From Candidatus Omnitrophota bacterium (lineage in GTDB: Bacteria > Omnitrophota > Gorgyraeia > Zapsychrales > Zapsychraceae), in NCBI GenBank assembly GCA_015233115.1, contig JADFYJ010000003.1:104536-168535 (forward strand): a DNA stretch of 64,000 nucleotides, written 5' to 3'. The notes under the pieces are model-generated. The model had not been told where the DNA came from. It saw only the letters and a program-made list of their open reading frames with translations, and searched no databases. Below are positions 1,672-58,743 of the stretch, piece by piece. The position numbers and the translations under genes were made by a program. Each line of letters opens with the position of its first letter. Within the stretch, counting starts at the first letter, position 1.

Positions 1672-1676
1672 TCAAA

Positions 1677-1994
1677 GTAACAGAGTGACAGAGTAACAAA
1701 GTGACAGAGAAAAGGCGAATGTTGAAAAAGGCGATTGATGCTGGAAAAATATCAGACAAAAAATATAAAACACAAAGTTACAAGAAAGATTGGCTATAAA
1801 AAAATATAATAAATATCTAAATTTTTGGCTATTACATTTTAGTTGTTAATTTTTTTGTTTTTTGCTTTGATACTTAGTTGCTCGGTTACCTTGTCACTTA
1901 ACATGCATTATTAGTTTTATGTTATTTGTTTTTAGGTTTTTTTGTTTGGTGTTTTTTTACTTTGTTACTCTGTCACTCTGTTACTCGGTTACTT
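1677..1994 (+). repeat. Intergenic inverted-repeat cassette (GTRACMRA octamer family)
   Basis: L array 1677-1709 AGTAACAGAGTGACAGAGTAACAAAGTGACAGAG + AAAAGGCGAATG; R array 1960-1994 CTTTGTTACTCTGTCACTCTGTTACTCGGTTACTT (reverse complement); AT-rich spacer. Confidence 0.8.
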
Positions 1995-2003
1995 TAAAAA
2001 GTA

Positions 2004-3262
2004 TGTTACAGAACATTAAAGAAATAATTAAAGCCTTGCCCCTGACCAGCGGCGTTTATTTAATGAAGAATGCCGCGGGTGAAATTATTTATATCGGGAA
2101 AGCTGTTTCCCTGCGTAAGCGTGTTCAATCATATTTTCGTCCAGCTTCAGCTGTTTTGAGCAAAACCGACCTTTTGGTCGCGGATATCCGCGACATTGAT
2201 TATATTCCTACGCTGAGTGAGGCCGAAGCCCTTATCCTTGAGGCCGGACTAATAAAAAAACATCAGCCTCGTTACAATATTGATTTGCGGGATGATAAAT
2301 CTTATCCTTTTATTGAAATTACCAAAGAAACTTTTCCGAGGATTATGGTTACCCGTCCGAAGGAAAAGCGGAAAGACGCGGTTTATTATGGGCCGTATGT
2401 CAACGCGGGTTTGGTGAGGGAAGCATTAGGTTTGTTGCGGAAAATTTTTCCGTATTGTAATAAAAAGACCTGCGGGCCGAAAGAATGTTTGGATTTCCAT
2501 TTAGGATTGTGTCCGGGGCCATGCGCGGGCAAGATCTGCGCGAAAGACTATCAAGATAATATTAAGAACATTTGTTTTGTGTTAGACGGAGAAAAGGATC
2601 AGTTATACCGCGGGTTGCAGGGAAAAATGGCAGAGCTGGGCAGCCGCAAAGAATATGAAGAAGCGGCAAAAGTGCGGGACCAGCTGCGCGCGGTGTCAGC
2701 ATTATATTCTGGATCAGCCAATGTTAATTTTTATAAAGAGGCTGAACAATTGCAAAGATTATTGGAATTGCCGAGAATCCCGGAGCGCATCGAGGCTTTT
2801 GATATTTCCAATATTATGGGTGAACAGGCGGTTGGGTCTATGGTGTCATTTTTAAATGGGAGGCCGGACAAGAAAAATTACCGGAGATTTAAAATTAAAA
2901 CAGTGGAAGGGATTGATGATTTTCAGATGATGGCCGAAGTGGTGCACCGCAGGTATAAACGTTTGAAAGAGGAGAAAACTGTTTTTCCGGATTTGATTTT
3001 GGTTGACGGGGGAAAGGGGCAATTGTCAGCGGCTGTGGGGCAATTAAAGATTTTGAACGTGGATGTTCCGATTGCTTCGCTGGCCAAGAAAGCAGAAGAA
3101 ATATTTTTGCCGCGGAAACGAAATCCTGTCAAGTTATCGCCGGAATCATTGGCCTTACAATTATTGCAAAGGATCAGGGATGAGGCCCATAGGTTTGCCG
3201 TAACCTATCATCGTCTAAGGAGAACAAAAAATGCGTTTCGAAATCGCGATGAAAAAACATAA
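2004..3262 (+). CDS. uvrC: UvrC-like excinuclease subunit (GIY-YIG + UVR + endonuclease domains, no C-terminal HhH)
   Basis: GIY-YIG motif SGVYLMKNAAGEIIYIGKA, UVR motif EYEEAAKVRDQLRAV, DISNIMG...LILVDGGKGQL endonuclease region; ends at ...HRFAVTYHRL without the (HhH)2 domain; start 2004 (MLQNIKE) chosen because 1919-2003 is a repeat array. Confidence 0.6.
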
Positions 3263-3536
3263 ATTAACAAAATTTCAATGGCGAGTTTTAGAGGCCGCCC
3301 TTACAATACCGTTAGGCGAGACAAGGACGTATCAATGGGTAGCGGATCAATTGGGAAAACCAAAAGCTGTGCGCGCGGTAGGGCAAGCGTTGCGGCGCAA
3401 TCCATATCCGCTTATCATCCCGTGTCATCGCGTGATTAAAAGCGACGGCCAGCTCGGTGGATACGAAGGTGGCCCGTGCGATAGGAAAGCAGAATTGTTG
3501 GAGATTGAGAAGTATATCGTTAAAGAAATGGAGTAG
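3231..3536 (+). CDS. Methylated-DNA-protein-cysteine methyltransferase C-terminal (DNA-binding) domain protein
   Basis: PCHRVI active-site motif, Ogt/MGMT C-domain-like 101 aa; RBS AAGGAG 8 nt upstream; overlaps uvrC 3' end. Confidence 0.55.
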   Translation: MRFEIAMKKHKLTKFQWRVLEAALTIPLGETRTYQWVADQLGKPKAVRAVGQALRRNPYPLIIPCHRVIKSDGQLGGYEGGPCDRKAELLEIEKYIVKEME

Positions 3537-3539
3537 GGC

Positions 3540-4616
3540 ATGAACATCAGGGAAATGTTTGTAAAAATGGTGAATTTAAAAGCCTCGGATATTTATTTGA
3601 GAATTAAAGCCTATCCGCGGGCAAGAATTAACGGGACGATTGAGGTGATAGGTGATTCGCTGATTACAAGTGAAGAAATGATGAGTTTAACGCATGTGCT
3701 GCTGGGAAATGATGAGCGGCGTAAAATGTTTCAGGAAAAATGGAGTGTGGATTTTATTCATTTTGAGCCGGATATCGGCCGTTTTCGGGTTAATGTATTT
3801 ATGCAGCGGAATACCCCTTCCATTGTGGCCCGGCATGTCTTCGCGGCAGTAGATACTTTTTTTGATTTACATCTGCCGGAAATTGTTTGCAAAAAATTTG
3901 CGGATTTAACCCAAGGGCTATGTTTGGTTTGCGGCCCGGCTGGGAATGGTAAATCCACGACTGTCGCGAGTATCATTGAGCATATTAACCGGAATAAGTC
4001 AAAACATATCATAACGCTGGAAGATCCGATCGAGTTTTTATTCGAAGATAAAAAAGCTTTTATCAATCAGCGGGAGATTGGAAAGGATGTGGCCACATAT
4101 CCGGACGCGCTACGGTCTGTGACTTTGCAGAGCCCGGATATTATTTATATCGGAAATATCCGGGATTATTCGACCATGAAAGCGGCCATTACCGCGACGG
4201 AATTAGGCGCCGGCGTATTTACTACGTTTCATACGGTTAATGCGGTTCAAACAATTATACGGATTATTAATTTTTTTCCGCCGCACTTGCATGATGAAGT
4301 GAGGATGCAATTATCGTTGATTTTAAAAGGTTCCATATCTTTGAGGCTGATACCGCGTAAAGACGGGAAAGGTCGTATCCCGGCGTGTGAAACCTTGGTC
4401 ATCACTCCAACGATTGCTAGGTTAATTCATGAAAATAAAATTAAAGAAATTCAAAATTTTATTGATGAAGGCGCTATGTTTGGTATGTGTTCTTTTCAGC
4501 AGTCTTTAGTGGCTTTGGTAAAAGAGGGATTGGTGGATGTGGATGTAGCCCGGACTTATGCTGACAGCGCGGATGATTTTGATTTGGAAATCAGGGGAAT
4601 CAAAAGAGTTAGATAG
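3540..4616 (+). CDS. pilT: Type IV pilus retraction ATPase PilT family
   Basis: Walker A GPAGNGKSTT, ITLEDPIEF, PilT-type N-terminus ASDIYLRIKAYPRARINGTI; no other pilus genes adjacent. Confidence 0.75.
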   Translation: MNIREMFVKMVNLKASDIYLRIKAYPRARINGTIEVIGDSLITSEEMMSLTHVLLGNDERRKMFQEKWSVDFIHFEPDIGRFRVNVFMQRNTPSIVARHVFAAVDTFFDLHLPEIVCKKFADLTQGLCLVCGPAGNGKSTTVASIIEHINRNKSKHIITLEDPIEFLFEDKKAFINQREIGKDVATYPDALRSVTLQSPDIIYIGNIRDYSTMKAAITATELGAGVFTTFHTVNAVQTIIRIINFFPPHLHDEVRMQLSLILKGSISLRLIPRKDGKGRIPACETLVITPTIARLIHENKIKEIQNFIDEGAMFGMCSFQQSLVALVKEGLVDVDVARTYADSADDFDLEIRGIKRVR

Positions 4617-4617
4617 A

Positions 4618-4668
4618 AGATGTCAGAAGGTCAGAAGTCAGATGTCAGATGTCAGAAGAAAAAGCTTA
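4618..4668 (+). repeat. Unpaired left-type array (GTCAGAAG family) after pilT
   Basis: GTCAGAAGGTCAGAAGTCAGATGTCAGATGTCAGAAG + AAAAAGCTTAGGG. Confidence 0.7.
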
Positions 4669-4693
4669 GGGCGGTTTACGAACCGCCTTTATA
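4669..4693 (+). terminator. Candidate intrinsic terminator after pilT
   Basis: GGCGGTT-TACG-AACCGCC hairpin followed by TTTATAAT; lies just 3' of the GTCAGAAG repeat array. Confidence 0.35.
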
Positions 4694-4900
4694 ATAAAAA
4701 ATGTCGTTGGTTTTTTGCGAAGGTCTTGTTTATATATATATATGTAATTTTTATTTGTAATTAAATTATCATATAAACTATATAATTTGTAAATCAATCC
4801 AACGCCCTGCGTTTCTTTTGTTTTTCATTAATTATAATAATTTAATTGGATCGTAAGTTATTGATAATAAATAATTTATGGTTTTGAGGCGAAATTTTAT

Positions 4901-4929
4901 TTGACCTTAAAAAATGATTTTGATATAGT
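4901..4929 (+). promoter_or_regulatory. Candidate sigma-70/sigma-A promoter for purB
   Basis: TTGACC (4901-4906), 17-nt spacer, TATAGT (4924-4929); GAGGGAAA RBS precedes ATG 4980. Confidence 0.45.
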
Positions 4930-4979
4930 AGTGCGTTCAATAAACTTACCATCCAACCCACAAACCAGAGAGGGAAATT

Positions 4980-6979: not shown

Positions 6980-6989
6980 AGTTTAAAAC

Positions 6990-7040
6990 GTGACAATGTA
7001 ATAGTGTAACAATGTGACAATGAAAAAGAGAAAAACGAAG
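6990..7040 (+). repeat. Left-type array (GTGACAATG family) after purC
   Basis: GTGACAATGTAATAGTGTAACAATGTGACAATG + AAAAAGAGAAAAACGAAG; partial inverse copies TTCATTGTCACG (7091-7102) and GCATTGTCACATT (7277-7289) flank structured-element copy B. Confidence 0.7.
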
Positions 7041-7140
7041 AGCAAAATAGAAATATAAATTTTATCTTTTTCACAATCATGTTTTCCTATTTCATTGTCA
7101 CGTTTTAATTCGTTTTGTTAAATTTTTGCGTTTTTAATAA

Positions 7141-7262
7141 AGCGCGCGGCAGGGCGGTTTGCATTTAAACCGAATCCTTCGCTCAAACAGCAGCTCCGAA
7201 GCGGAGCTGAACTCGCTCTGGGATTCGGTTGCAACGCCAACCTTGAGTTTAAGCAAGCGGTT
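7141..7262 (+). repeat. Structured palindromic element, copy B
   Basis: AGCGCGCGGCAGGGCGGTTTGCATTTAAACCGAATCCTTCGCTCAAACAGCAGCTCC-GAAG-CGGAGCTGAACTCGCTCTGGGATTCGGTTGCAACGCCAACC; upstream of purL. Confidence 0.8.
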
Positions 7263-7309
7263 AAAGTGTTTTTTTTGCATTGTCACATTTAACATAAGGA
7301 TTTTAAATT

Positions 7310-10211: not shown

Positions 10212-10916
10212 ATGGTCGAGTCTAAGTTGGCTAAGAAAGTACCTGATTTTCAGATGGAAGATCCCTGGCGTGTATTTCGTATTATGTCAGAATTTGTTTA
10301 TGGATTTGAGCATTTGTCCATGCTGGGGCCGGCTGTCACGGTATTTGGTTCGGCGAGGACAAAAAGCGAAGATAAAATGTATAAATTAGCGGAAAAGGTA
10401 TCCAAGCAATTAGCGGAAAAAGGTTATACGATAATTACCGGCGGAGGCCCGGGCATTATGGAAGCCGGAAATAAAGGCGCTTGCGAGGGCGGCGGCATTT
10501 CTGTGGGCTTAAATATTGAACTTCCGTTTGAACAAAAACCAAATCCTTATATCAACCACTTGGTCAATTTTCATTACTTCTTTTGCCGAAAAGTGATGTT
10601 TTTAAAATACGCGTGGGCCGTTATTATTTTCCCCGGCGGTTATGGGACTATGGATGAGCTGTTTGAATGTTTGACTTTGGTGCAGACGGAGCGTATTGAG
10701 ACTGTGCCGGTTATTTTTATGGGTCGGGATTTTTGGACCGGACTTATTAGCTGGATGGATGAACAACTGGTGGGGAATCAGAAGATCGAAGCCAAGGATC
10801 TGAAAGTGTTTAACGTGGTCGACACGGCTGAAGAAGCTGTTCTTATAGTCGATAAATTTTGTAAGCAAGAAGCAAAACGCAGAAAAATCAAAAAAAGCAC
10901 ATGGAAAAACATATAA
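10212..10916 (+). CDS. LOG-family protein (TIGR00730 Rossmann fold; nucleotide 5'-monophosphate nucleosidase-like)
   Basis: Motifs GGGPGIMEAGNKGA and PGGYGTMDELFE; embedded between purL and purQ. Confidence 0.7.
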   Translation: MVESKLAKKVPDFQMEDPWRVFRIMSEFVYGFEHLSMLGPAVTVFGSARTKSEDKMYKLAEKVSKQLAEKGYTIITGGGPGIMEAGNKGACEGGGISVGLNIELPFEQKPNPYINHLVNFHYFFCRKVMFLKYAWAVIIFPGGYGTMDELFECLTLVQTERIETVPVIFMGRDFWTGLISWMDEQLVGNQKIEAKDLKVFNVVDTAEEAVLIVDKFCKQEAKRRKIKKSTWKNI

Positions 10917-11734
10917 AAGTTTTAGTCCTGCGCACAGCAGGCACAAATTGCAACGGTGAAATGGCCAATGCTTTTGAGCATTTTGGCGCTCAAGTGGACC
11001 AGGTTCATATCAAGCGCTTGCGTCAGCATGAAATTTTGCTGAAGGATTATCATATTTTAGCTATTCCCGGCGGATTTACTTACGGCGATGATATTGAATC
11101 AGGCCGGATTTTGGCTAATGAATTGCGCTTGCATCTGGGAAAAGATTTGGCTCAATTTATTCAGGATAAAAAATTGATTATCGGCATATGCAACGGATTT
11201 CAGATTTTAGTTAAAGCGGGAATATTGCCCGGAAATTTGGATAAAGGACAATCTTCCATGGAAGAAGGATTTAAGCAGTCTTCGACTTTGACGAATAATG
11301 ATTCCGGAAAATTTGAAGATCGTTGGACTTATTTGAAGGTTGCCGGCGAAAGTGTATGGACGAAAAATTTATCGCCTGTCGTATATTTTCCGGTCGCGCA
11401 CGCGGAAGGCAAATTTATTCCCATGAGTGAGGACGTATTACAGGGATTAAAGCATAATCAGCAGATCGCGTTTACTTATTGTTCGGCTCAGGGAGGAGAG
11501 CCTGTTTATCCGGAAAACCCCAATGGATCGACTCTGCATATCGCGGGCATTACAGATGTGACTGGGAGGATCTTAGGCTTGATGCCGCATCCGGAACGCC
11601 ATTTTTATTTTGAAAACAGTCCTAATTGGAATGGACAGGCTAAAAAAAATAAATTAGGCGATGGCGCGCAGATTTTTAAAAATGGCGTGGAGTACGTGCG
11701 CAATACTTTATTAAGTAACCGAGTAACCGAGTGA
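10901..11734 (+). CDS. purQ: Phosphoribosylformylglycinamidine synthase glutaminase subunit
   Basis: KVLVLRTAGTNCNGE, catalytic GICNGFQIL, HPER; last codons (LSNRVTE-TGA) lie inside the GTAACCGA repeat array. Confidence 0.8.
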   Translation: MEKHIKVLVLRTAGTNCNGEMANAFEHFGAQVDQVHIKRLRQHEILLKDYHILAIPGGFTYGDDIESGRILANELRLHLGKDLAQFIQDKKLIIGICNGFQILVKAGILPGNLDKGQSSMEEGFKQSSTLTNNDSGKFEDRWTYLKVAGESVWTKNLSPVVYFPVAHAEGKFIPMSEDVLQGLKHNQQIAFTYCSAQGGEPVYPENPNGSTLHIAGITDVTGRILGLMPHPERHFYFENSPNWNGQAKKNKLGDGAQIFKNGVEYVRNTLLSNRVTE

Positions 11735-12037
11735 CAGAGAAAAAGCGTTTGGTGTAAAAAAAGCCGATGCGAGATAACAATAAAAAACGACTGCAAAAAG
11801 TAATAATCAATACTTAAGAGCAGAGACTAGTAATTTTTTCTGAAAAGTGTTTTAATGACATCCATTTTTATAATTTAGTTTATATTGTTATAAATTTATC
11901 GAATTTTTTTGTTATTGTTTTTTTTCGTCTATTTGTTTTAACTTTTTATTTTTAAATTTTATGTTTTTAAATAGCATTTTATTTTTTTGTTTTTACTCTG
12001 TTACTTGGTTACTCGGTTACTCGGTTACTCTGTCACT
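11714..12037 (+). repeat. Intergenic inverted-repeat cassette (GTRACMRA family), purQ-purM
   Basis: L 11714-11739 AGTAACCGAGTAACCGAGTGACAGAG + AAAAAGCGTTTGG; R 11993-12037 TACTCTGTTACTTGGTTACTCGGTTACTCGGTTACTCTGTCACTT. Confidence 0.8.
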
Positions 12038-12063
12038 TAACTGTAATGATTAAAGGAATTTCT

Positions 12064-13068
12064 ATGACTACCAGTATTACATATAAAACCAGCGGTGTAG
12101 ATATTGATAAGGCCAATCAATTTGTCGATAATATTGGGACGCATGTGAAAAGTACGTTTGTGAAAGGCGTGATGACCCGAAAGGGGTCATTCGGCGCTTT
12201 GTTTGGGCTGGATACTAAAAAATATAAAGAGCCGGTTATGGTGTCCTCGACAGATGGGGTTGGAACGAAACTACTGATTGCCAAAGCATTGAACAAGCAT
12301 GATACTGTCGGCATTGATCTCGTGGCTATGAATGTGAATGATATTTTGTGTGTCGGCGCAAAGCCCTTGTTCTTTTTGGATTATATCGCGTGCGGTAAAG
12401 TTGATGTTAAGATTTTGACGGATGTGGTTAAGGGAATTGCGGATGGCTGCCGTCAATCAGGGTGCGCTTTAATCGGTGGAGAAACCGCGGAAATGCCGGG
12501 GATGTACGCGGCGGATGATTATGATTTGGCTGGATTTACCGTGGGCGTGGTTGAGAAAGCTAAGATTGTGGATGGTTCGAAAATTAAAGCCGGAGATGTT
12601 TTATTCGGATTGCCTTCTACCGGCGCGCATTCGAACGGATATTCTATGGTGCGAAAAGTTTTGTCTTTGTCTGACATGAAAAAGATGAGGGACGCGGTTT
12701 TGGCGCCCACAAAAATATATGCCAAGGAAGTGGAAGCGGCGTGTGCGAAGTTTAATGTGAAGGGGATGGCGCATATTACCGGCGGCGCGTATTATGAAAA
12801 ATTGCCTCGAATATTGCCTAAGGGTTTGTGCGCGAAGGTGAATACGTCCAGTTGGGATGTGCCAGAGCTATTTAAAATGATTCAGAAAAAAGGCAATGTG
12901 GCCAAGAGTGAGATGTATCGCACATTTAATATGGGTATTGGGTATGTGTTTGTGATCGCTAAAAAAGACGCGGAGCAATTTGGCAAATTTTTGAAAGCGA
13001 AAAAAATTGTGTATCATATTATTGGTGAAGTTATTAAAGATAGTAAACAAAGGGTTATTTTAGAGTAA
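12064..13068 (+). CDS. purM: Phosphoribosylformylglycinamidine cyclo-ligase (AIR synthase)
   Basis: SGVDIDKANQFV..., AIR synthase fold; start 12064 chosen (AAAGGA RBS 6 nt upstream) over ORF-track 12046. Confidence 0.85.
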   Translation: MTTSITYKTSGVDIDKANQFVDNIGTHVKSTFVKGVMTRKGSFGALFGLDTKKYKEPVMVSSTDGVGTKLLIAKALNKHDTVGIDLVAMNVNDILCVGAKPLFFLDYIACGKVDVKILTDVVKGIADGCRQSGCALIGGETAEMPGMYAADDYDLAGFTVGVVEKAKIVDGSKIKAGDVLFGLPSTGAHSNGYSMVRKVLSLSDMKKMRDAVLAPTKIYAKEVEAACAKFNVKGMAHITGGAYYEKLPRILPKGLCAKVNTSSWDVPELFKMIQKKGNVAKSEMYRTFNMGIGYVFVIAKKDAEQFGKFLKAKKIVYHIIGEVIKDSKQRVILE

Positions 13069-13329
13069 CCAAGTAACCAAGTAACCGAGTAACCGAGTGA
13101 CAGAGAAAAAGCGGTTGGATTGAGAAATTAATAAATAAAAACTACGGGAAAAATAAAAAATTTAGAACAAGAGAAGCAGATAAAAAATGTGTGATTTTGT
13201 TGGTTTATTGGCATTAAATTTTATGCTTTATCGTTGTTAATGTGTTGTGCTGTTACGGTTTTTTTATTTTTTTAGCATTCGTTTTTTGTTTTTACTTTGT
13301 TACTCGGTTACTTGGTTACTCTGTCACTT
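13064..13329 (+). repeat. Intergenic inverted-repeat cassette (GTRACMRA family), purM-purD
   Basis: L 13064-13105 (GTAACCAA x2, GTAACCGA x2, GTGACAGA) + AAAAAGCGGTTGG; R 13295-13329 CTTTGTTACTCGGTTACTTGGTTACTCTGTCACTT; right side also has CATTCGTTTTTT (reverse complement of box variant). Confidence 0.8.
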
Positions 13330-13347
13330 AATGATTAAAGGATTTAT

Positions 13348-14634
13348 ATGAAGATAATGGTAATTGGCTCTGGCGGTCGGGAGCATACGATAGTTTGGAA
13401 ATTGAAGCAAAGCCTTAAGGTGGAGCAGATTTTTTGCGCGCCGGGAAATGGCGGCATTGCGCAGTTAGCTACTTGCGTTGATATTAAGGTGGAGGATATT
13501 AACGGGCTTTTAAATTTTGCTCAGAAAGAAAAGATTGATCTAACCGTCGTGGGTCCGGAAACGCCTTTGGTGGCTGGGATTGTTGATGCGTTTGAGAAAA
13601 AGGGGTTTAAAATTTTTGGGCCTTCGAAGTCGGCGGCGCAGTTGGAGGGGAGTAAGATTTTCGCGAAGATGTTTATGGCGGAAGAGGATATTCCGACAGC
13701 TATATTTGCGACATTTGATCAGATCAAAGACGCAAAGATATATTTGAAAAAAAATAAATTTCCGGTAGTGTTAAAGGCGGATGGGTTGGCGGCAGGCAAA
13801 GGTGTAGTGATTTGTCAGAATGAGCAGGAGGCTTTTGCGGCGTTAGATCAGATCATGGGAGAAAAAATTTTCAAAGATGCCGGGTCTAAAGTTGTCATTG
13901 AGGAATTTTTGCAAGGCGAAGAAGTTTCGGTTTTAGCGATCTGTGATGGTGATCATTTCGTTATGCTGGAATCTTCCCAGGATCATAAAAGGGCATTTGA
14001 TCAGGATCAGGGCCCGAATACCGGAGGGATGGGCGCGTATTCGCCGGCACCGGTTTTGAAAGAAGGCTCGAATGAAAAAGAAGCCTATGCTATTATTGAA
14101 CAAACGATCAAGGGGATGAAAAAAAGCGGCAGGCCGTTTAAAGGTGTGTTGTACGCGGGTTTAATGATTACAGCCAAGGGCGTAAAAGTTTTGGAATATA
14201 ATGTGCGGTTTGGTGATCCGGAGACTCAGGTGATTTTGCCGCGCTTGAAAAATGATTTTGTGGATTTGATGCTGGCTTCGTGTGAAGGACATTTGGACCA
14301 AATAAAATTGGAATGGGATCCTCGTTCTGCGGTGTGTGTGGTGATGGCCGCGAAAGGATACCCCGGCGATTACGCGAAAGGTTTGAAGATTAGCGGGTTG
14401 GATCAGGCGGCCTTAGTGAATGATGCTATGGTATTTCACGCTGGGACAGTGAAAAAGGGCGATGATATTTTAACGGCAGGCGGACGGGTTTTGGGTGTGA
14501 CGGCATTGGGTGATGGCATTAAAAAAGCGATAGATAGCGCTTACGAAGCGGTGCAGATGATTCAATGGGATGGGTGTTTTTATCGTCGAGATATAGGATA
14601 TCGCGCATTGGAACGTCTGAAAAATGGTATGTAG
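13348..14634 (+). CDS. purD: Phosphoribosylamine-glycine ligase
   Basis: MKIMVIGSGGREHTIVWKL, ATP-grasp; AAAGGA RBS. Confidence 0.85.
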   Translation: MKIMVIGSGGREHTIVWKLKQSLKVEQIFCAPGNGGIAQLATCVDIKVEDINGLLNFAQKEKIDLTVVGPETPLVAGIVDAFEKKGFKIFGPSKSAAQLEGSKIFAKMFMAEEDIPTAIFATFDQIKDAKIYLKKNKFPVVLKADGLAAGKGVVICQNEQEAFAALDQIMGEKIFKDAGSKVVIEEFLQGEEVSVLAICDGDHFVMLESSQDHKRAFDQDQGPNTGGMGAYSPAPVLKEGSNEKEAYAIIEQTIKGMKKSGRPFKGVLYAGLMITAKGVKVLEYNVRFGDPETQVILPRLKNDFVDLMLASCEGHLDQIKLEWDPRSAVCVVMAAKGYPGDYAKGLKISGLDQAALVNDAMVFHAGTVKKGDDILTAGGRVLGVTALGDGIKKAIDSAYEAVQMIQWDGCFYRRDIGYRALERLKNGM

Positions 14635-14655
14635 TATGTGTGATTCATTCTGTAA

Positions 14656-14782
14656 GGCGCGCGGTAGGGCGGTTTGCATTTAAACCAAATCATTCGCTCA
14701 AACAGCAGCTCCTAAGCGGAGCTGAACTCGCTCGGTGATTCGGTTTAAACACAAACCTTGTGTATGGGGCACGCGGTTTGGA
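14656..14782 (+). repeat. Structured palindromic element, copy C
   Basis: Same family; apex CAGCTCC-TAAGC-GGAGCTG; upstream of purE. Confidence 0.8.
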
Positions 14783-14836
14783 GATGTACGCGAAGATTAA
14801 TGATTACAGGAAATATTTGAAGATAGAGGAGGGCGT

Positions 14837-16380: not shown

Positions 16381-16381
16381 G

Positions 16382-16569
16382 GTATGTAGTATGTGGTATG
16401 TGGTGGAAAAAAGAGTATAAAAAAGAGAAACGCATAAAAGGAGTTATTGATGAGAAGGGAATTGGCTAAAAATTTTAAATAAGATGTAAATAAAGTATAT
16501 CTAATAACTTTTTTTGTGTTTATAAATAAATTTTGTTTACTACATACGACATACTACGAACTACATACT
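16382..16569 (+). repeat. Intergenic inverted-repeat cassette (GTATGTN heptamer family), tsaC-fusion to rpiB
   Basis: L 16382-16407 GTATGTAGTATGTGGTATGTGGTGG; R 16538-16569 TACTACATACGACATACTACGAACTACATACT. Confidence 0.8.
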
Positions 16570-17041: not shown

Positions 17042-17292
17042 AGTAACAGAGTAACCGAGTAACCGAGTTAAAAGAAAAAAGTGATTGGTTTAAAAGGCGA
17101 TATACACGATTGACGGGAAAACGGTAATGGCGGCTTAAAATAATTGATTACGTAGACGATTAAAGAAAATTTTAACGATATAATACAAATTACTTTTTGT
17201 TCGTCTTTTGTCTTTTTAAAATTATATTTGTGATTTGTGTTTTATTTATTTTGTTACTCTGTCACTCGGTTACTCGGTCACTTTGTTACTTT
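17042..17292 (+). repeat. Intergenic inverted-repeat cassette (GTRACMRA family), rpiB-glyA
   Basis: L 17042-17068 + AAAAGAAAAAAGTGATTGG; R 17251-17292 TTGTTACTCTGTCACTCGGTTACTCGGTCACTTTGTTACTT. Confidence 0.8.
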
Positions 17293-17320: not shown

Positions 17321-18571
17321 ATGTCATTGAAAAATGTTGATCCCGAGGTGTTTCAGGCGATCAGTCAAGAACTCGACCGCCAGAAAAATAATTTGGAATT
17401 GATCGCTTCCGAGAATATCGTGTCTGAAGCGGTTTTGGCGGCGCAAGGTTCAGTCTTGACGAACAAATACGCGGAAGGGTATCCGGCGGCGCGCTGGTAT
17501 GGTGGATGTGAATATGTAGATATCGTCGAGCAACTGGCCATTGACCGGGCTAAAGAATTATTTGGCGCGGAGCATGTGAATGTTCAGCCGCATTCTGGTT
17601 CTCAGGCGAACACGGCGGTATATTTAGCCGCTTTAGAATATGGGGATACTGTGCTGGCTATGGATTTAGCTTGCGGCGGTCATTTAACGCATGGGTTAAA
17701 TATTAATTTTTCCGGCAAATCATATAAGTTCATCGGATATAAAGTTAATCATGCTACTGAACAATTGGACTATGATGAGATTGAGGCTTTAGCTAAACAG
17801 CATAAACCTAAGATGATTGTCGCTGGAGCATCGGCTTATTCCCGGACCATTGACTTTAAAAAATTCCGCGCGATTTGTGATTCTGTCGGCGCCATGTTGT
17901 TTGTGGATATGGCTCATATTGCCGGACTGGTCGCGGCGGGTTTACATCCTTCGCCTGTTCCTTACGCGGAATTTGTGACCACGACCACGCATAAGACTTT
18001 ACGCGGTCCGCGCGGCGGCATGATTCTCTGTAAAGAAGCATTCGCAAAAAAAATCAATTCCCGTATTTTTCCAGGGATTCAAGGCGGGCCTTTAATGCAT
18101 GTGATCGCGGCTAAAGCCGTCGCGTTTAAAGAAGCGCTGGAGCCGTCGTTTAAAGTGTATCAAGCCCAGATCATAGCTAACGCTAAAATTTTTGCGCAAG
18201 AATTAGAAAAATTAGGGTATCGTATAGTCGCTGGCGGGACAGATAATCATTTGTTTATGGTTGATCTCCGTCCTAAAAATATTACCGGGAAAGAAGCCGC
18301 GCATGTGCTGGATTTGGTGCGGATTACGGTTAATAAAAATTTGATTCCCTTTGATCCCCAGCCGCCGACAGTAACCAGCGGCATCCGAATAGGAACACCG
18401 GCTGTGACCACCCGCGGCATGAAAGAAAAAGAAATGCTGCAAATCGCGCATCTTATGGATCAAGCGATTATAAATCGTAATGATCAAAAAGTGTTGGCGA
18501 GCGTCAAAACAGAAGTAGAAAAATTAACGAAACAGTTTCCGATTTATGAAAATCTTAAAAGCGGTATGTAG
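17321..18571 (+). CDS. glyA: Serine hydroxymethyltransferase
   Basis: SHMT motifs, PLP region [15 protein letters not shown]; stop TAG sits inside the GTATGTAG repeat. Confidence 0.9.
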
Positions 18572-18668
18572 TATGTGGCATGTCGTATGTAGTGAAAAAT
18601 AAAAAATCAAATAAAACCTTGCTGGTTTATAGTTTTGCTACATACGACATACTACGAACCACATACTT
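18564..18668 (+). repeat. Intergenic inverted-repeat cassette (GTATGTN family), glyA-nrdR
   Basis: L 18564-18593 GTATGTAGTATGTGGCATGTCGTATGTAGTG (contains glyA stop); R 18637-18668 GCTACATACGACATACTACGAACCACATACTT; spacer only ~45 bp. Confidence 0.8.
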
Positions 18669-19558: not shown

Positions 19559-19748
19559 GTATGTCGTATGTGGTATGTAGAATGTAGTAAAGAAAAGGCG
19601 AATGGTAAAAAACAAAAAATAAGTAAATTGGAGAGAATGGCTTCTGACTTGCCTAAATCTAAAACATTTCGTTTTACTGACGTCTGCTTTTCGAGTCTTT
19701 ATTAATTATTTCTCAACCACATGCGACATGCAACATACTACATACGAT
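19559..19748 (+). repeat. Intergenic inverted-repeat cassette (GTATGTN family), BFN gene-cca
   Basis: L 19559-19587 + AAAGAAAAGGCGAATGG; R 19717-19748 CCACATGCGACATGCAACATACTACATACGAT. Confidence 0.75.
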
Positions 19749-21210: not shown

Positions 21211-21370
21211 TGCGCGCGGGCTGGGACGGTTTGCATTCAAACCAAATCCCTCGCTCAAACAACCTTGGCGAAGCGAGAGCATGACGAAGCTGGGATCACG
21301 ACCGAACCGCCAAGGAAACTCGCTCTGGGATTCGGTTTAAACGCAAACCTATTTATTGGGCACGCGATTT
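21211..21370 (+). repeat. Structured palindromic element, copy D (long-apex variant)
   Basis: Arms GGTTTGCATTCAAACCAAATCC / GGATTCGGTTTAAACGCAAACC; apex CCTTGGCG...GCCAAGG with 40-nt insertion; between cca and macro-nudix gene. Confidence 0.8.
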
Positions 21371-23233: not shown

Positions 23234-23356
23234 AATAGCCTCTTCGATTGGCAAAGCCGCCTATATATATGGCATACTTGTCATACTTCTTAAAAAAGTA
23301 AAAAGTAAAAATTCAAAGTAAAAGTAAAGCAAATCAGAAATAACATAAACAAAGTT

Positions 23357-30376: not shown

Positions 30377-30492
30377 TTAAATAATGGCTAAAATCTTTAA
30401 TTGCGCTAATTGATTGGCTTAATTATGGCTAATTAAGTTGACAGGTTGGCTTAATTATGGCAAAATTATCCTGGATTATATGAAAGGAAATT

Positions 30493-32055: not shown

Positions 32056-32183
32056 GTCGTAGGGGCGATCTCCCGATCGCCCGTTAATAAATTTTTTATT
32101 TTTGGCTTTTGTTTTTAAAATTAATTTATTGAAAAAAGCGATAATTTTGTGACGGGCGATCGGGCGATCTCCCCTACGAACGA
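32056..32183 (+). repeat. GC-rich hairpin element pair in TIR arrangement (GGGCGATC-TCCC-GATCGCCC family)
   Basis: 32056-32087 GTCGTAGGGGCGATCTCCCGATCGCCCGTTAA and inverted copy 32150-32183 flank a 62-bp AT-rich core containing GAAAAAAGCGATAA. Confidence 0.75.
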
Positions 32184-36625: not shown

Positions 36626-36694
36626 GCGATTGGTTAAAAAATTGTTGACCAAAAACCAACAACTAAAAACCATCAACCAATAAACAATTTATTT

Positions 36695-38707: not shown

Positions 38708-38710
38708 AAA

Positions 38711-38740
38711 TAGGTGATAGGTGATAGCTGATAGGGAAAA
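38711..38740 (+). repeat. Compact left-type array (GGTGATAG family) in 13-bp SPOR gene to miaA junction
   Basis: TAGGTGATAGGTGATAGCTGATAGG + GAAAAGCGAATTG overlapping the inferred miaA start. Confidence 0.55.
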
Positions 38741-39675: not shown

Positions 39676-39930
39676 AGTAACCGAGTAACAGAGTAACCGA
39701 GTGACAGAGCAAAACGATTTATGAGAATAAAAATGGTGATTTACTTATAAAAAATGATTGAGTGAAAAAGCGAAAAAGATAAATTAAACGAGAATGAAAA
39801 GATGTAATAAATTTAAAGGTGTTTAAGTTTTGGGATAATATTTTTGTTTATTAGTATTTGGATAATAGTTTACCGACATTTATTTTTACGTTTTTCTTTT
39901 TCGCTCTGTTACTCGGTTACTCGGTTACTT
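39676..39930 (+). repeat. Intergenic inverted-repeat cassette (GTRACMRA family), miaA-hflX
   Basis: L 39676-39709 AGTAACCGAGTAACAGAGTAACCGAGTGACAGAG + CAAAACGATTTATG; R 39904-39930 CTCTGTTACTCGGTTACTCGGTTACTT; inner flanks GAAAAAGCGAAAAAG / CTTTTTCGCTC also mirror. Confidence 0.8.
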
Positions 39931-39945
39931 AAAAGGGGAGCACCT

Positions 39946-43567: not shown

Positions 43568-43612
43568 TATAATGTGACAATTTAACAATGTGACAGTGTG
43601 ACAATGTGACAA
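43568..43612 (+). repeat. Unpaired left-type array (GTGACAATG family) after tail-fibre-like gene
   Basis: AATGTGACAATTTAACAATGTGACAGTGTGACAATGTGACAACG + AAAAAACTAAGG. Confidence 0.65.
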
Positions 43613-45420: not shown

Positions 45421-45577
45421 GGTATGTAGTATGTAGAAAAAACGAATGATTTAAAAAAATAACAATCAAAAATTCTCAATACTAATATAAGATTTTCATT
45501 TACGTTTTTTGATTTTGCATTTATTTAATTTTTACGATTTTTTTGCCACATGTTATATGCTACATACTACATGTTAT
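45421..45577 (+). repeat. Intergenic inverted-repeat cassette (GTATGTN family) between CIRCE and hrcA
   Basis: L 45421-45436 GGTATGTAGTATGTAG + AAAAAACGAATGA; R 45545-45577 GCCACATGTTATATGCTACATACTACATGTTAT. Confidence 0.7.
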
Positions 45578-46936: not shown

Positions 46937-47062
46937 AAGCGCGCGGTAGGGCGGTTAGCATTTAAACCAAATCATTCGCTCAAACAGCAGCTCCTAAGCG
47001 GAGCTGAACTCGCTCGGTGATTTGGTTTCAACGCAAACCTTCTGTAGGGGGCACGCGGGTTG
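46937..47062 (+). repeat. Structured palindromic element, copy E
   Basis: Same family; between grpE and dnaK. Confidence 0.8.
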
Positions 47063-47109
47063 AAGATGTGTATGAAAATTTAGGGTTTTTGTTTTTTGTT
47101 TAGTTTTTT

Positions 47110-47382
47110 ACTTTGTTACTCTGTTACTCGGTTACTTTGTTACTTAATGATTACAGGAAATATATGAAGATAGAGTAGGGGGCACGCGGGTTGAGGATGT
47201 ACGCGATAAAAAATATAGATAATATGTTAAAGAAGATGATGGCTTTTGTAGAAAAATTGACTTAGTTTTTTTGTTTAATAATCTTAGCTTTAAATTTTTA
47301 GTTTTTGATTTTTTGTATTTGATTTTGTATAGCTTTTTTACGTTTTTACTCTGTCACTCGGTTACTTGGTTACTCTGTTACT
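47110..47382 (+). repeat. Two right-type GTRACMRA arrays in the mosaic grpE-dnaK spacer
   Basis: 47110-47145 CTTTGTTACTCTGTTACTCGGTTACTTTGTTACTT and 47346-47382 TTTACTCTGTCACTCGGTTACTTGGTTACTCTGTTACT; between them 47146-47205 copies the purE leader (TTAATGATTACAGGAAATAT.TGAAGATAGAG...GGGGCACGCGG.TTG.GGATGTACGCG, cf. 14766-14835). Confidence 0.7.
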
Positions 47383-47410
47383 AATAATTTAATAACAAGA
47401 AGGAGAATAT

Positions 47411-50504: not shown

Positions 50505-50606
50505 GTCGTAGGGGCGATCTCCTGATCGCCCGTTAAAAAATTAGCGCTTTTGTTTTTTGGTTTTGCTTTTGCTTTGTTACTCTGTTACTTGGTTACTCTG
50601 TTACTA
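50505..50606 (+). repeat. Solo GC-rich hairpin element plus right-type GTRACMRA array upstream of FmdB-family gene
   Basis: 50505-50536 GTCGTAGGGGCGATCTCCTGATCGCCCGTTAA; 50571-50606 CTTTGTTACTCTGTTACTTGGTTACTCTGTTACT. Confidence 0.7.
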
Positions 50607-50631
50607 TCAAAATTAATTAAAAGGAATTATT

Positions 50632-50913: not shown

Positions 50914-51269
50914 GAAAATTTCTCAGTTTTTGGTTCCCTGTCCTGCTTTATTCTGCTATTATCTTTGCTGCTTCATCAATACAGAATGTCGCACTGCCTG
51001 GGAGCGTTCCTAATTTTGATAAAGTATTGCATATTGGGGAATATGTTGTTTTGGGCTTATTGTTAGCTAGGGCGTTGAATAGCATAGAGTTTAAGCTTTC
51101 CTTAAAACAGATTTGGCTATTGGCAGCAGTGCTTTGTTTTATTTACGGCTTAACCGATGAATGGCATCAATCATTTGTTCCTGGGAGAACAGCAGATATA
51201 TGGGATGCCATAGCTGATTTCATTGGCGGTGGTTTGGGGGGGTGGATATGGCTTTTTATCAAGAGGTAA
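50901..51269 (+). CDS. VanZ-family membrane protein
   Basis: FPVLLYSAIIFAASS, DEWHQSFVPGRTADIWD; probable TTG start overlapping the FmdB-family gene. Confidence 0.5.
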   Translation: MLQIRKFLSFWFPVLLYSAIIFAASSIQNVALPGSVPNFDKVLHIGEYVVLGLLLARALNSIEFKLSLKQIWLLAAVLCFIYGLTDEWHQSFVPGRTADIWDAIADFIGGGLGGWIWLFIKR

Positions 51270-51273
51270 TCGT

Positions 51274-51300
51274 GGTAAAGGTTGTAAAAGAACCTGCGAT
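51274..51300 (+). repeat. Unpaired left-type array (GGTAAAG family) after VanZ gene
   Basis: GTGGTAAAGGTTGTAAAAG + AACCTGCGATTGATAGAAAAACGATCGG. Confidence 0.5.
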
Positions 51301-51351
51301 TGATAGAAAAACGATCGGTGAAAAAAAATTAAAAGTTAGGTAAAAATTTAT

Positions 51352-52617: not shown

Positions 52618-52622
52618 GAGAA

Positions 52623-52750: not shown

Positions 52751-52775
52751 TGAATTTTTTAGGAGACAGTACCTC

Positions 52776-53621: not shown

Positions 53622-53702
53622 TGGTTGCTTTTGATCAGTGTTGTGTATAAATTATAGATTGTAATTATATTAATCGTTTTTGCATTGTTACGTTTTTAAT
53701 AA

Positions 53703-53826
53703 AGCGCGTGGGTAGGGCGGTTGGCATTTAAACCAAATCCTTCGCTCAAACAGCAGCGACTCGGCGTCGCTGAACTCGCTCGGGGATTCGGTTTTAACGC
53801 CAACCTTGAGTATGGGCACGCGGTTA
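53703..53826 (+). repeat. Structured palindromic element, copy G
   Basis: Apex CAGCGAC-TCGGC-GTCGCTG; arms GGTTGGCATTT... / ...AACGCCAACC co-vary; upstream of ABC ATPase gene. Confidence 0.8.
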
Positions 53827-53848
53827 CCAGATTTGCTTTGCAGTTTTT

Positions 53849-53879
53849 TTGCACTGTCACACTGTTACATTGTTACTTA
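53849..53879 (+). repeat. Unpaired right-type array (GTGACAATG family) upstream of ABC ATPase gene
   Basis: TGCACTGTCACACTGTTACATTGTTACTT. Confidence 0.6.
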
Positions 53880-53895
53880 ATAAGGCGAAAGACCT

Positions 53896-56266: not shown

Positions 56267-56269
56267 TAA

Positions 56270-56470
56270 GCATGTAGTATGTGGTATGTCGTATGTGGTG
56301 AAAAAGCCGTTGTTGAAAATCGATAGGTGTAGTGAAGGATGTGACAGTAGGCAGTAAAAAAATATAAAATAAAGATAAAATTTTTTTAAGAATTTTGGGC
56401 TAGAATTATTTGTGAATGTTTTTTATTTTTCGGTTTTTCTACATGCCACATACTACATACGACATACTAG
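56270..56470 (+). repeat. Intergenic inverted-repeat cassette (GTATGTN family) between the two GGDEF genes
   Basis: L 56270-56300 GCATGTAGTATGTGGTATGTCGTATGTGGTG + AAAAAGCCGTTG; R 56439-56470 CTACATGCCACATACTACATACGACATACTAG. Confidence 0.8.
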
Positions 56471-56487
56471 TTGATTAGGAGTTATTA

Positions 56488-57519: not shown

Positions 57520-57642
57520 GAACTGTTTGAAAACGCCCATCTGCGGCGTTATTCTCTCGTTCGCTTGTGCGGCGTACTTACTGCTGTACGCCTCCGCGTT
57601 CACTCGGGAATGCCTTGCATCTGGGCATTTTGAAACAGTTCC
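57520..57642 (+). ncRNA. Candidate structured RNA element (closed ~123-nt domain) between GGDEF gene and glucokinase
   Basis: GAACTGTTTGAAAACGCCCA (57520-57539) pairs 18/20 with TGGGCATTTTGAAACAGTTC (57623-57642); internal GGCGTAC-TTACTGCT-GTACGCC hairpin; visibly more GC-rich than flanks. Confidence 0.35.
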
Positions 57643-57681
57643 ACTATAATCTTACCTTTTATATAATTAATAAAACAATTA

Positions 57682-57710
57682 TTGAATGACGAGTACATAT
57701 CATGTAAAAT
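57682..57710 (+). promoter_or_regulatory. Candidate promoter for glucokinase gene
   Basis: TTGAAT (57682-57687), 17-nt spacer, TAAAAT (57705-57710) with TG immediately upstream. Confidence 0.35.
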
Positions 57711-57748
57711 GCTCAAAATATAAAAAAGTGATTATTATTATGAATAAG

Positions 57749-58699
57749 TATTATATTGGTATTGATGTGGGCGGGACAAATATTAAGTTTGGACTGCTTA
57801 ACGAATCCGGAACGATTATCGCTAGAAATCGTTTATCAACAGTGAGTTGCGCTTCTTCTAAAAAAAAGCTTATCAATGCTCTTACCGGTATTATCCATCA
57901 GTTAATGAATGAAAATAATTTAAAAAACAATCAAATGGCAGGAATAGGATTTGGTTTACCGGGACTCATTGATGCTGAAGCTGGTGAGGTCAAGATATTA
58001 ACGAATATTTTTGGCTGGAAAAATGTTCCGCTCAAGAAAATGATGGAGGATGCCACAGGTATTCCTACTTTCATAGATAATGATGTTAATGTGATTACTT
58101 TGGGAGAATGGAAATACGGGGCAGGACGGGGTTATGACAATTTGGTGTGTATTACAGTTGGTACAGGTGTGGGCGGAGGGTTAATTTTAAACGGGGAGAT
58201 CTATCGCGGTCCCGGCTTTACTGCTGGAGAAATTGGACATATTCCATTAAATGAAAAAGGGCCGGCTTGCAATTGCGGAGGTTCTGGATGTCTAGAAGCG
58301 TATGTGGGGAATCGTCATTTGATTGCCAAAGCTGCTAAGCTTTTTAAAAATAAAAATATTCGATTGGAAGATGTATCAGAATTGGCGAAAAAAGAAAATT
58401 CCCGGGCTATTGAATTTTGGGAAGAAGCTGGCTTTCATATAGGTATGGGTTTAGTGAGCGTGATTAATGTTTTAAATCCCCAGTTAATTGTGATCGGCGG
58501 TGGAGTTTCGAATGGCCTGCCATTTATGAAAAAATCATTAGAAAAAACGATTCAAAGCAGGGCTATGAAGATTCCGGCTGGTATGGTCAAAATTGTAAAA
58601 GCCAAGCTGGGCGATGACGCGGGATTAATTGGGGCAATGGTACTTGTTAAAAGTCAGAAGGTCAGAAGTCAGAAGTCAGAAGAAAAAACGATTGGTTAG
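57749..58699 (+). CDS. ROK-family glucokinase
   Basis: YYIGIDVGGTNIKFGLL, CNCGGSGCLEAYV zinc motif; C-terminal 15 aa (SQKVRSQKSEEKTIG) encoded by the GTCAGAAG repeat array. Confidence 0.75.
   Translation, partial: YYIGIDVGGTNIKFGLLNESGTIIARNRLSTVSCASSKKKLINALTGIIHQLMNENNLKNNQMAGIGFGLPGLIDAEAGEVKILTNIFGWKNVPLKKMMEDATGIPTFIDNDVNVITLGEWKYGAGRGYDNLVCITVGTGVGGGLILNGEIYRGPGFTAGEIGHIPLNEKGPACNCGGSGCLEAYVGNRHLIAKAAKLFKNKNIRLEDVSELAKKENSRAIEFWEEAGFHIGMGLVSVINVLNPQLIVIGGGVSNGLPFMKKSLEKTIQSRAMKIPAGMVKIVKAKLGDDAGLIGAMVLVKSQKVRSQKSEEKTIG
58651..58693 (+). repeat. Left-type array (GTCAGAAG family) + conserved box, inside glucokinase 3' coding end
   Basis: GTCAGAAGGTCAGAAGTCAGAAGTCAGAAG + AAAAAACGATTGG, all translated in frame. 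Confidence 0.7.
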
Positions 58700-58743
58700 A
58701 AAAACAAATAAACCAAATTATCAACTATTTATTAAGCGATCTG

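Follow-up and report, generated by a model that had tools for sequence, protein, structure and literature searches.

Inverted arrays of short tandem words bound inserted spacers in the housekeeping operons of an Omnitrophota bacterium

Intervening sequences (IVSs) of ribosomal RNA are selfish, sporadically distributed elements that are bordered by complementary sequences and cut out by RNase III, which leaves the function of the host RNA unharmed, and some of them carry an open reading frame (ORF) for the S23p protein (PMC4990558). Short tandemly repeated repetitive (STRR) sequences, long simple-sequence repeats and TAACTGA repeats are tandem words of 7-8 nt that lie in intergenic regions near start codons and are patchily distributed across phyla; they have been described as direct arrays of unknown function, with 1 of 170 sets inverted in a Beggiatoa genome (PMC4679880). 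Here we analyzed a 64-kb stretch of contig JADFYJ010000003.1 from a Candidatus Omnitrophota bacterium (all of it referred to as the window), in which a number of spacers between genes begin with a tandem array of a 7- or 8-nt word and end with the reverse complement of the same word. On balance, we take these spacers to be dispersed, ORF-less, IVS-like palindromic elements of a class of cassettes that elsewhere carry a gene for PF05635, the 23S rRNA intervening-sequence protein, with arms that would form a stem of the RNase III type in the operon transcript.

Small palindromic intergenic insertions are also known already, and two kinds resemble the window elements. MITEs (miniature inverted-repeat transposable elements) such as the Correia elements of Neisseria are likewise small, non-coding, multi-copy and intergenic, with inverted ends; Correia elements are co-transcribed with their neighbours and their transcripts are substrates of RNase III. 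Repetitive extragenic palindromic (REP) sequences and bacterial interspersed mosaic elements are palindromic units found after stop codons in operons, often as inverted pairs in mosaics, and the window spacers are similarly mosaics of arrays, GC-rich palindromes and GC hairpins. However, REPs are single imperfect palindromes of 20-40 nt with a GTAG head that are mobilised by REP-associated tyrosine transposases (RAYTs), whereas each window arm is a non-palindromic tandem array with its partner 45-250 nt away, GTAG is confined to the heptamer word and no RAYT was seen in the window. A previous reading of the window, made from the sequence only, had known of no described system with this architecture; IVSs, STRR heptamers and TAACTGA repeats are in fact close in kind (PMC4679880), but in the open-access literature and bioRxiv we found no description of inverted tandem-word arms as element ends, of their family coding or of systematic bracketing of PF05635 genes across phyla (an older account in a subscription journal is possible).

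Paired arrays at nine gene junctions

The window contains about 50 genes, all on the + strand, with a G+C content of about 41% and a strongly positive GC skew. These are housekeeping genes, including ubiA, uvrC, pilT, purB-C-L-Q-M-D-E, tsaC, rpiB, glyA, nrdR, hflX, hrcA-grpE-dnaK-dnaJ, accD, lptD and others. With Tandem Repeats Finder (TRF), a simple scan for periodicity and the printed sequences of all spacers, we recovered the arrays where the sequence-only reading had located them. TRF reported arrays of 2-6 copies with a period of 7, 8 or 9, and each arm thus falls within the definition of an STRR or long simple-sequence repeat (5-11-nt units, intergenic). Unlike STRR and TAACTGA repeats, a left array is paired with a right array that is the reverse complement of the same word at nine junctions, five with the octamer GTRACNRA and four with the heptamer GTATGTN:

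1676-1994, + strand: octamer element 1, CAAX protease/uvrC; left arm 1676-1710 (GTAACAGAGTGACAGAGTAACAAAGTGACAGAG), right arm 1957-1994, AT-rich interior
11714-12040, + strand: octamer element 2, purQ/purM; left arm 11714-11740, right arm 11993-12040
13064-13330, + strand: octamer element 3, purM/purD; left arm 13064-13106, right arm 13292-13330
16381-16569, + strand: heptamer element, tsaC/sua5 and rpiB; left arm 16381-16406 (GTATGTAGTATGTGGTATGTGG), right arm 16538-16569
17042-17292, + strand: octamer element 4, rpiB/glyA; left arm 17042-17069, right arm 17252-17292
18564-18668, + strand: heptamer element with a short interior, glyA/nrdR; left arm 18564-18594, right arm 18640-18668
19559-19747, + strand: heptamer element, bifunctional nuclease gene and CCA-poly(A) polymerase-like gene; arms 19559-19589 and 19719-19747
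39676-39932, + strand: octamer element 5, miaA/hflX; arms 39676-39710 and 39901-39932
56270-56469, + strand: heptamer element between two GGDEF genes; arms 56270-56300 and 56439-56469

The two arms of a junction belonged to the same family in nine of nine cases (P=1/126=0.008 for random pairing of 5+4 arms). Duplex energies agreed, ranging from -29 to -62 kcal/mol between arms of one family and from -3 to -15 across families, and the claim that left and right arrays match beyond chance was therefore confirmed. Arms described as exact reverse complements proved to be 77-90% Watson-Crick complementary over stems of 26-39 nt. As the sequence-only reading had proposed, the arms of each element pair when the whole element is folded, giving stems of 26-39 bp with z of -3.6 to -7.8: octamer element 1 reached dG -87.4 and z -6.9 (32 Watson-Crick and 3 G.U pairs of 39), the glyA/nrdR element dG -40.3 and z -7.0, and the miaA/hflX element z -7.8. 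In length, these stems match substrates of RNase III, rRNA IVSs among them (PMC4990558). A degenerate 23-nt pattern representing the inner end of the octamer arm occurred nine times, compared with 0 in 100 shuffles.

The arrays are precisely placed with respect to the flanking genes. Measured from the end of the upstream stop codon, the start of a left array falls anywhere from 21 nt before it to 16 nt after it, and in three cases the array itself supplies the stop; the left arm of octamer element 2 overlaps the final 21 nt of purQ and provides its stop codon, the purM stop codon lies within the first left-arm unit of octamer element 3, and that of glyA lies inside the left arm of the glyA/nrdR element. 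Right arrays end 8-28 nt upstream of the start codon, with the ribosome-binding site (RBS) outside the stem. The right arm of octamer element 3, for example, is followed by TTAATGATTAAAGGA and then ATG, and the hflX RBS (GGGGAG) and start codon (ATG at 39946) lie downstream of the right arm of octamer element 5. Matching acts within a spacer and not across a gene, since the arm upstream of rpiB is a heptamer array and the one downstream an octamer array, with the reverse order around glyA. Pairing of a right arm with the left arm of the next spacer was rejected as an organising rule, because rpiB and glyA are flanked by different families.

Paired arrays are less general than had been thought. 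The sequence-only reading placed them at 10 or more junctions and around almost every spacer, but they occupy 9 of about 49 junctions, or 9 of the 26 spacers longer than 100 nt, and the array at 45421 is a left array alone; nine more spacers have unpaired arrays only (count from the spacer print-out). Two other classes of repeat were considered and rejected: CRISPR arrays, in which repeats of 23-50 nt alternate with unique spacers of similar length, as opposed to contiguous units of 7-9 nt here, and integron attC sites, on the grounds of unit size and sequence.

Insertion into conserved operons and anatomy of the ends

We compared the window with 80 Omnitrophota purB loci (L001-L080, about 1.32 Mb). 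The closest relative, L001 (metagenome-assembled genome (MAG) JADFYE010000007, Omnitrophota), has a PurB 95% identical to that of the window, at around 80% nucleotide identity, while PurB identity to the 79 other MAGs, most of them labelled Omnitrophota, is 74-84%. The order pur-tsaC-rpiB-glyA is conserved in around 60 of the genomes compared, and most other genomes have overlaps, or gaps of a few to tens of nt, where window junctions measure 329, 279, 202, 205 and 282 nt. Between tsaC and rpiB, L001 has 9 nt (TAA-AGGATAAAC-ATG), whereas a heptamer element of 205 nt lies between TAG and AAAGGAATATT-ATG in the window; rpiB and glyA are separated by 14 nt in L001 and 282 nt in the window; and purQ and purM, which share a 4-nt ATGA overlap in L001, are 311 nt apart in the window, where purQ gains six codons from the array. 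Flanking protein ends are conserved between the window and L001 at the junctions compared. As the same junctions overlap or are short in relatives, the array-bracketed spacers are insertions. Orthologous junctions are thus empty, and the insertion polymorphism on which the sequence-only reading had staked its case is present.

The same junctions have been occupied more than once. Array hairpins of other flavours lie between purQ and purM in L042 (GTCAAAAG), L043 (GGACTTG) and L047, and between tsaC and rpiB in L008 and L019 (AGTCACAA), L040 (TCGAAAT) and L042 (AAGTCAAA), indicating recurrent and independent colonisation. The GTYAGAA flavour recurs in distant genomes (the window, L028 and L065), and the octamer pattern was not found in the 80 purB loci. 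Arrays of period 7-9 are about eightfold denser in the window than in the related loci (0.36 versus 0.043 per kb); around half of the relatives' arrays have an inverted partner within 500 nt (at most 3 mismatches per 18-20 nt), and short-loop hairpins consisting of the two arms alone are common.

Inverted ends, small size, absence of an ORF, many copies, insertion polymorphism and family-coded ends would all be expected of MITE-type derivatives of DNA transposons, in which the words would be binding sites for cognate transposases encoded elsewhere, one for each flavour, and the RNA stem would be incidental. Terminal inverted repeats are indeed present, yet each arm is itself a tandem repeat of variable copy number. 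The target-site duplication that the sequence-only reading suggested looking for was found neither on comparing the window with the empty sites of L001 nor across the five octamer copies: bases flanking the latter (TTA/TTA, TTA/TAA, TAG/TAA, CAA/TTA and TTA/TAA) extend the inverted repeat and form no consistent direct repeat. Unlike MITEs and Correia elements, the window elements thus have no duplication of TA or any other target, and neither a conserved interior nor a fixed length, as interiors differ between copies, slippage varies arm length and spacers with elements measure 112-331 nt. Moreover, the 64 kb contain at least five flavours, and related and unrelated genomes add many more of the same design, so that one transposase would be required for each; no transposase is encoded among the window genes. 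Membership of the classical MITE/Correia group, which had been put forward, is therefore not borne out, and we consider a transposon-derived origin of this kind unlikely.

Similarity between copies is limited to the arms and some 10-15 adjacent nt, which are 87-100% identical over 30-40 nt, and the interiors are unrelated (all-against-all BLAST). Conserved adjacent bases are GAGAAAAAGCG on the left side; on the right side, TTTTTAC precedes the array and some copies also have TTAATGATTAAAGGA behind it. An irregular unit, CTACGAAC, is common to the heptamer right arms at 18640-18668 and 16538, which points to copying between loci and not to independent slippage. These data bear on an origin in place, in which elements would not move at all and slippage would expand a word near a stop codon, intrastrand template switching would copy it across, and the resulting arrays would be hot spots for AT-rich filler, GC-rich elements and PF05635 genes. 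The variable-number arms and unrelated interiors are compatible with such an origin, as are the short-loop two-arm hairpins of relatives, the resemblance of L008 to the L019 hairpin carrying a nested GC-rich insertion, and the octamer units that flank GC-rich elements in the window. However, independent slippage would not give arms of this degree of identity, irregular units and adjacent GAGAAAAAGCG and TTAATGATTAAAGGA bases included, and the occurrence of one flavour, GTYAGAA, in distant genomes also speaks against it. We therefore regard an in-place origin as distinctly unlikely.

Left arrays of every flavour are followed by the motif GAAAAAGCGATTGG(T), for example at 1709-1740 (+ strand) and after the arrays ending at 11738, 13104, 17068, 19589, 36620, 45437, 51290, 56300 and 58681. 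This motif often ends in ATG or TTG, behind which comes a very short ORF of 2-26 codons (TTG-GTT-TAA, ATG-ATT-TAA), as at 1722-1802, 19600-19620, 39722-39751, 36631-36684 and others; these may be start-stop minigenes or chance occurrences. Octamer left arms contain stop codons in 3/3 frames on the + strand and 0 on the - strand, and right arms are their mirror image, so that translation arriving from either side, on either strand, would be halted. Heptamer left arms have stops in only 1-2 frames, and the GTCAGAA flavour has none on the + strand. Arrays lengthen two ORFs, the ROK-family gene at 57686-58699 (around 15 codons) and purQ at 10901-11734 (6 codons), and automatic annotation of such genomes will carry array-encoded ORF tails. 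In the interiors, AT skew runs from +0.25 to +0.71 in the left half and from -0.10 to -0.71 in the right half, and GC skew is positive in both halves of most elements. The A-rich left and T-rich right sides reported previously are thus real, but they do not extend the palindrome: complementarity between an element's own halves averaged 0.10, compared with 0.18 for halves of other elements, and extended palindromy was rejected.

PF05635 cassettes and the reading of the spacers

A scan with the octamer pattern gave 91 metagenome matches, many with just two units and possibly due to chance. Among them were hairpins with short loops, arrays of great length and several contigs with a 120-aa ORF between arrays. 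This ORF belongs to PF05635 (E=1e-36 in L137; also L133/L171 and L167) and to TIGR02436 ('four helix bundle protein'), with the pentameric XCC0516 structure as a relative and Avd of diversity-generating retroelements as a distant one. PF05635 proteins are pentameric four-helix bundles, homologous to Avd and associated with nucleic acids (PMC10053308). We then sampled PF05635 genes blind to arrays, taking six from a protein database and eight plasmid-borne copies from cultured Nostoc, Geminocystis, Anabaena, Calothrix, Pseudanabaena, Leptolyngbya, Oscillatoria and Gemmatirosa, which together with three distinct genes from the pattern scan made 17 contexts (Bacteroidota-like metagenomes; cyanobacterial and Gemmatimonadota plasmids).

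Arrays were present on both sides of the gene in 17/17 contexts (8/8 plasmid copies), with a tandem 6-8-nt array just upstream in each, and the downstream array was the reverse complement of the upstream one in at least 13 of the 17. Those on the Nostoc, Anabaena and Calothrix plasmids are of the STRR type. Flavours were specific to the locus (GGTRACAA, GGAGTRAT, AGTCACAR, GTGACACA, GTAGGGA/TCCCTAC, AAGGGAA, GGGCAGGA/TCCTGCCC, GGAGAGG and GGGAGAGT), and for 10 of the 17 genes the own upstream and downstream flanks formed the best duplex among the 17 candidates (P ~7e-9). One locus (L172, L174 and L176) had 4, 16 or 18 GGTRACAA units upstream in different samples, with identical flanks. Most PF05635 homologues were found on very short contigs, and hypervariable arrays probably break metagenome assemblies. 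The cassettes lie between operon genes in either orientation, for example between cas6 and cas4 (twice), between the genes for the beta and alpha subunits of ribonucleotide reductase, and among ABC-transporter genes. Both cas6/cas4 cassettes are in CRISPR-Cas loci (L199, plasmid pANA02 of Anabaena sp. 90; L201, plasmid pPg_01 of Pseudanabaena galeata), and PF05635 genes have been noted inside cas loci before (PMC3936711). In L197-L204 and L181 the sense strand of the upstream array is always purine-rich and often resembles a Shine-Dalgarno sequence (GGAG, AGGG, GAGG), the downstream array being pyrimidine-rich; left arrays of the window also have the purine-rich strand.

Since the window elements share the end architecture of these cassettes, we read them as, somewhat more likely than not, an ORF-less form of the cassette class, a reading to which rRNA IVSs with and without the S23p ORF lend a precedent. 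As with the IVSs of 16S and 23S rRNA, complementary borders would create an extended stem-loop in the host transcript (here a computed fold), presence varies between close relatives, and both are regarded as selfish. There may also be short ORF-less and longer PF05635-bearing forms, as in IVSs: PF05635 genes are absent from the window and from L001-L080 but lie between arrays of this design in the 17 other contexts. In contrast to IVSs, the window elements lie between protein-coding cistrons and none is in an rRNA helix, and their stems are built of tandem 7-8-nt words without an ORF; cutting by RNase III is proposed by analogy.

According to this model, elements would have settled in the short gap that separates a stop codon from the following RBS in housekeeping operons. 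Transcription of the operon would then run straight through the element, as suggested by promoter and terminator signals that are not enriched there: scans for sigma-70 promoters and intrinsic terminators over 11-20 kb gave counts equal to those of shuffles and no consistent site within elements. The arms would form an imperfect duplex of 26-39 bp, for which the folding potential was computed, with the AT-rich interior looped out, and RNase III may cut this duplex as it does in rRNA IVSs, either excising the element or splitting the transcript between cistrons. Both flanking genes would remain undamaged, given the stop codons in the ends and a downstream RBS that lies outside the stem. Arms would expand and contract by slippage, in line with the variation in unit number observed in related cassettes.

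Several observations weigh against this model. Thirteen arrays in the window are unpaired, and the A-rich/T-rich skew of the interiors is left unexplained by an IVS-like element. An arm pairs no better with its own partner than with other arms of its family, which means that there is no site-specific covariation. With regard to selection at the RNA level, G.U and A.C mismatches in the stems stand at 20:9 in the window (P=0.06, on non-independent copies) and overall at 30:23 (P=0.41). Two PF05635 contexts, L194 and L201, have direct and not inverted arrays flanking the gene. Finally, no PF05635 gene or remnant is present in the window or in about 1.3 Mb of related Omnitrophota loci, tblastn of the window and 171 loci giving matches in four metagenome loci only; the link to the cassettes accordingly rests on architecture and a weak leader motif, and not on interior homology.

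The mismatch counts, in which G.U does not significantly exceed A.C, would also suit a function in DNA, with AT-centred inverted repeats extruding as cruciforms or single-stranded hairpins and acting as supercoiling or replication signals; long inverted arms around an AT-rich centre, the position of all ~50 genes on one strand and the strong positive GC skew agree with this. A non-complementary loop of 45-250 nt, such as these elements have, nevertheless makes cruciform extrusion unfavourable. The elements are also missing from close relatives with the same gene orientation, and the rRNA IVS precedent operates at the RNA level (PMC4990558). A DNA-level function thus appears highly improbable.

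Alternatively, the tandem words might be host regulatory sites, recognised by a protein that binds RNA or DNA and governs the termination, translation or mRNA stability of the flanking genes, with complementarity a secondary matter. The precise placement of arrays at stop codons and just 5' of RBSs and the GAAAAAGCGATTGG motif behind left arrays of all flavours are in keeping with such sites, which have been proposed for heptamer repeats 5' of start codons (TAACTGA in Beggiatoaceae; PMC4679880), and PF05635 proteins are themselves nucleic-acid-associated pentamers (PMC10053308). However, the coexistence of several unrelated words in one genome and the 9/9 matching of left and right arrays argue for base pairing instead of a single binding specificity. 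Furthermore, the sites were inserted recently and are missing from close relatives that have the same genes, and the affected genes share no common function. We judge regulatory sites to have a slim chance of being the explanation, and retain the IVS-like reading.

Known RNA families did not account for the elements. Rfam 15 gave 0 matches at family gathering scores over the whole window, which also excludes rRNA from it, and an E-value scan of one spacer was likewise empty; a scan of the window for tRNA and tmRNA returned none.

Unpaired arrays, other repeats and implications

The 13 unpaired arrays of the window are:

4618-4658, + strand: solo left heptamer GTCAGAW x5.7, right after the pilT stop codon and followed by a terminator-like hairpin GGGCGGTTTACGAACCGCC
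6990-7022, + strand: left octamer array ACAATGTG/GTGACAAT, purC/purL (TRF, spacer print-out)
14627-14643, + strand: short solo left heptamer array GGTATGTAGTATGTGTG that spans the purD stop codon
36583-36620, + strand: solo left 9-mer array GGTAAACGG GGTAAAGGT GATAAAGGT AGTAAAGG, then AACAAGCGATTGG
38708-38736, + strand: solo direct heptamer ATAGGTG x3.7, junction of a SPOR-domain gene and miaA; no partner found
43571-43612, + strand: solo left octamer AATGTGAC x5, following a terminator-like hairpin 3' of a Peptidase_S74-domain gene; no partner found
45421-45437, + strand: solo left heptamer GGTATGTAGTATGTAG; no right array
47099-47146, + strand: solo right octamer array (TTACTTTGTTACTCTGTTACTCGGTTACTTTGTTAC), grpE/dnaK spacer
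47346-47383, + strand: second solo right octamer array, grpE/dnaK spacer
50572-50607, + strand: solo right octamer array, dnaJ and zinc-ribbon gene
51262-51290, + strand: short solo left array of the GGTAAAGNN kind, then CTGCGATTGATAG
53851-53878, + strand: solo right octamer array of the ACAATGTG family (CACTGTCACACTGTTACATTGTTAC), 5' of an ABC ATPase gene
58651-58682, + strand: solo heptamer GTCAGAA array, which by read-through forms the final ~15 codons of the ROK-family ORF

The view that there are just two word families therefore holds for the paired arms (GTRACNRA and GTATGTN) but not for all arrays, which also include GTCAGAW, ACAATGTG and the 9-mer GGTAAAGNN. The array at 4618 has no partner within 500 nt and is missing from the shorter spacer of L001. 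A GC-rich element in the purC/purL spacer is flanked by one single reverse-complement unit (CATTGTCAC) at 7094-7102 and another at 7279-7287, and the same junction of L001 carries a different flavour, GGTGTARA. It is plausible that one-armed junctions arose by decay or recombination.

A second repeat family is a GC-rich palindromic element of about 125 nt (GCGCGCGGTAGGGCGGTTTGCATTTAAACCAAATCC...GGATTCGGTTTAAACGCAAACC...GGGCACGCGG) without an Rfam match, whose variable inner hairpin keeps its pairing through compensatory changes. Copies are located at:

1-120: GC-rich palindromic element, cut by the window start
7139-7262: GC-rich palindromic element
14654-14783: GC-rich palindromic element
21213-21368: GC-rich palindromic element
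46939-47068: GC-rich palindromic element
53705-53832: GC-rich palindromic element

Octamer units flank this element at 7094-7102/7279-7287 and 53683/53851, as if it had been inserted into an array. A segment TTAATGATTACAGGAAATAT(A/T)TGAAGATAGAG, together with the 3' end of the GC-rich element, is duplicated between 47144-47205 (grpE/dnaK) and 14797-14836 (upstream of purE), which suggests recombination between spacers. L001 has an intergenic repeat of its own (CCCTCTCCAGCCTTTGGGGAGAGGGTTAGGGTGAGGGG) at 12110-12160 and 17740-17790, in purC/purL and purM/purD, and its purM/purD spacer contains a hairpin with the GCTCAAACAGC...GCTCAAC core of the window's GC-rich element. The third repeat is a GC hairpin, GTCGTAGGGGCGATCTCC(C/T)GATCGCCCG, at 32056-32083, 32153-32181 (inverted copy) and 50505-50532; two inverted copies bracket a 161-nt spacer 5' of the gene at 32208, and one copy lies 3' of dnaJ. 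The spacer between the ROK-family gene and a GGDEF gene has a long imperfect palindrome at 57520-57645 (GAACTGTTTGAAAACGCCCATCTGC ... GCATCTGGGCATTTTGAAACAGTTC) with no relation to the arrays. Finally, a giant ORF of 2339 aa at 23357-30376 has an AAAAAGT x5 array on its 5' side (23293-23328) and a 32-nt tandem duplication on its 3' side (30398-30461).

A wider generalisation is possible, and we advance it tentatively: inverted tandem-word arrays might be the ends of mobile cassettes that span phyla (Omnitrophota, Bacteroidota, Cyanobacteriota and Gemmatimonadota), with an autonomous form encoding the pentameric, Avd-like PF05635 protein. Such cassettes would insert between a stop codon and an RBS or in rRNA hairpin loops, and RNase III would remove them from the host transcript. 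PF05635, with or without a reverse transcriptase, would bind to stems built of the repeats and bring about copying, and STRR sequences, TAACTGA repeats and solo arrays would be their footprints. If correct, this would provide a common explanation for short tandem heptamer and octamer repeats, for the presence of the PF05635 family inside unrelated operons and for the ORF-less palindromic spacers of Omnitrophota. Within genomes such as this one, the elements inflate intergenic distances, so that operons would resemble separate transcription units, and they extend or truncate the ends of ORFs, as in purQ and the ROK-family gene. The cassettes would then be, in effect, 'intervening sequences' of operon mRNAs.

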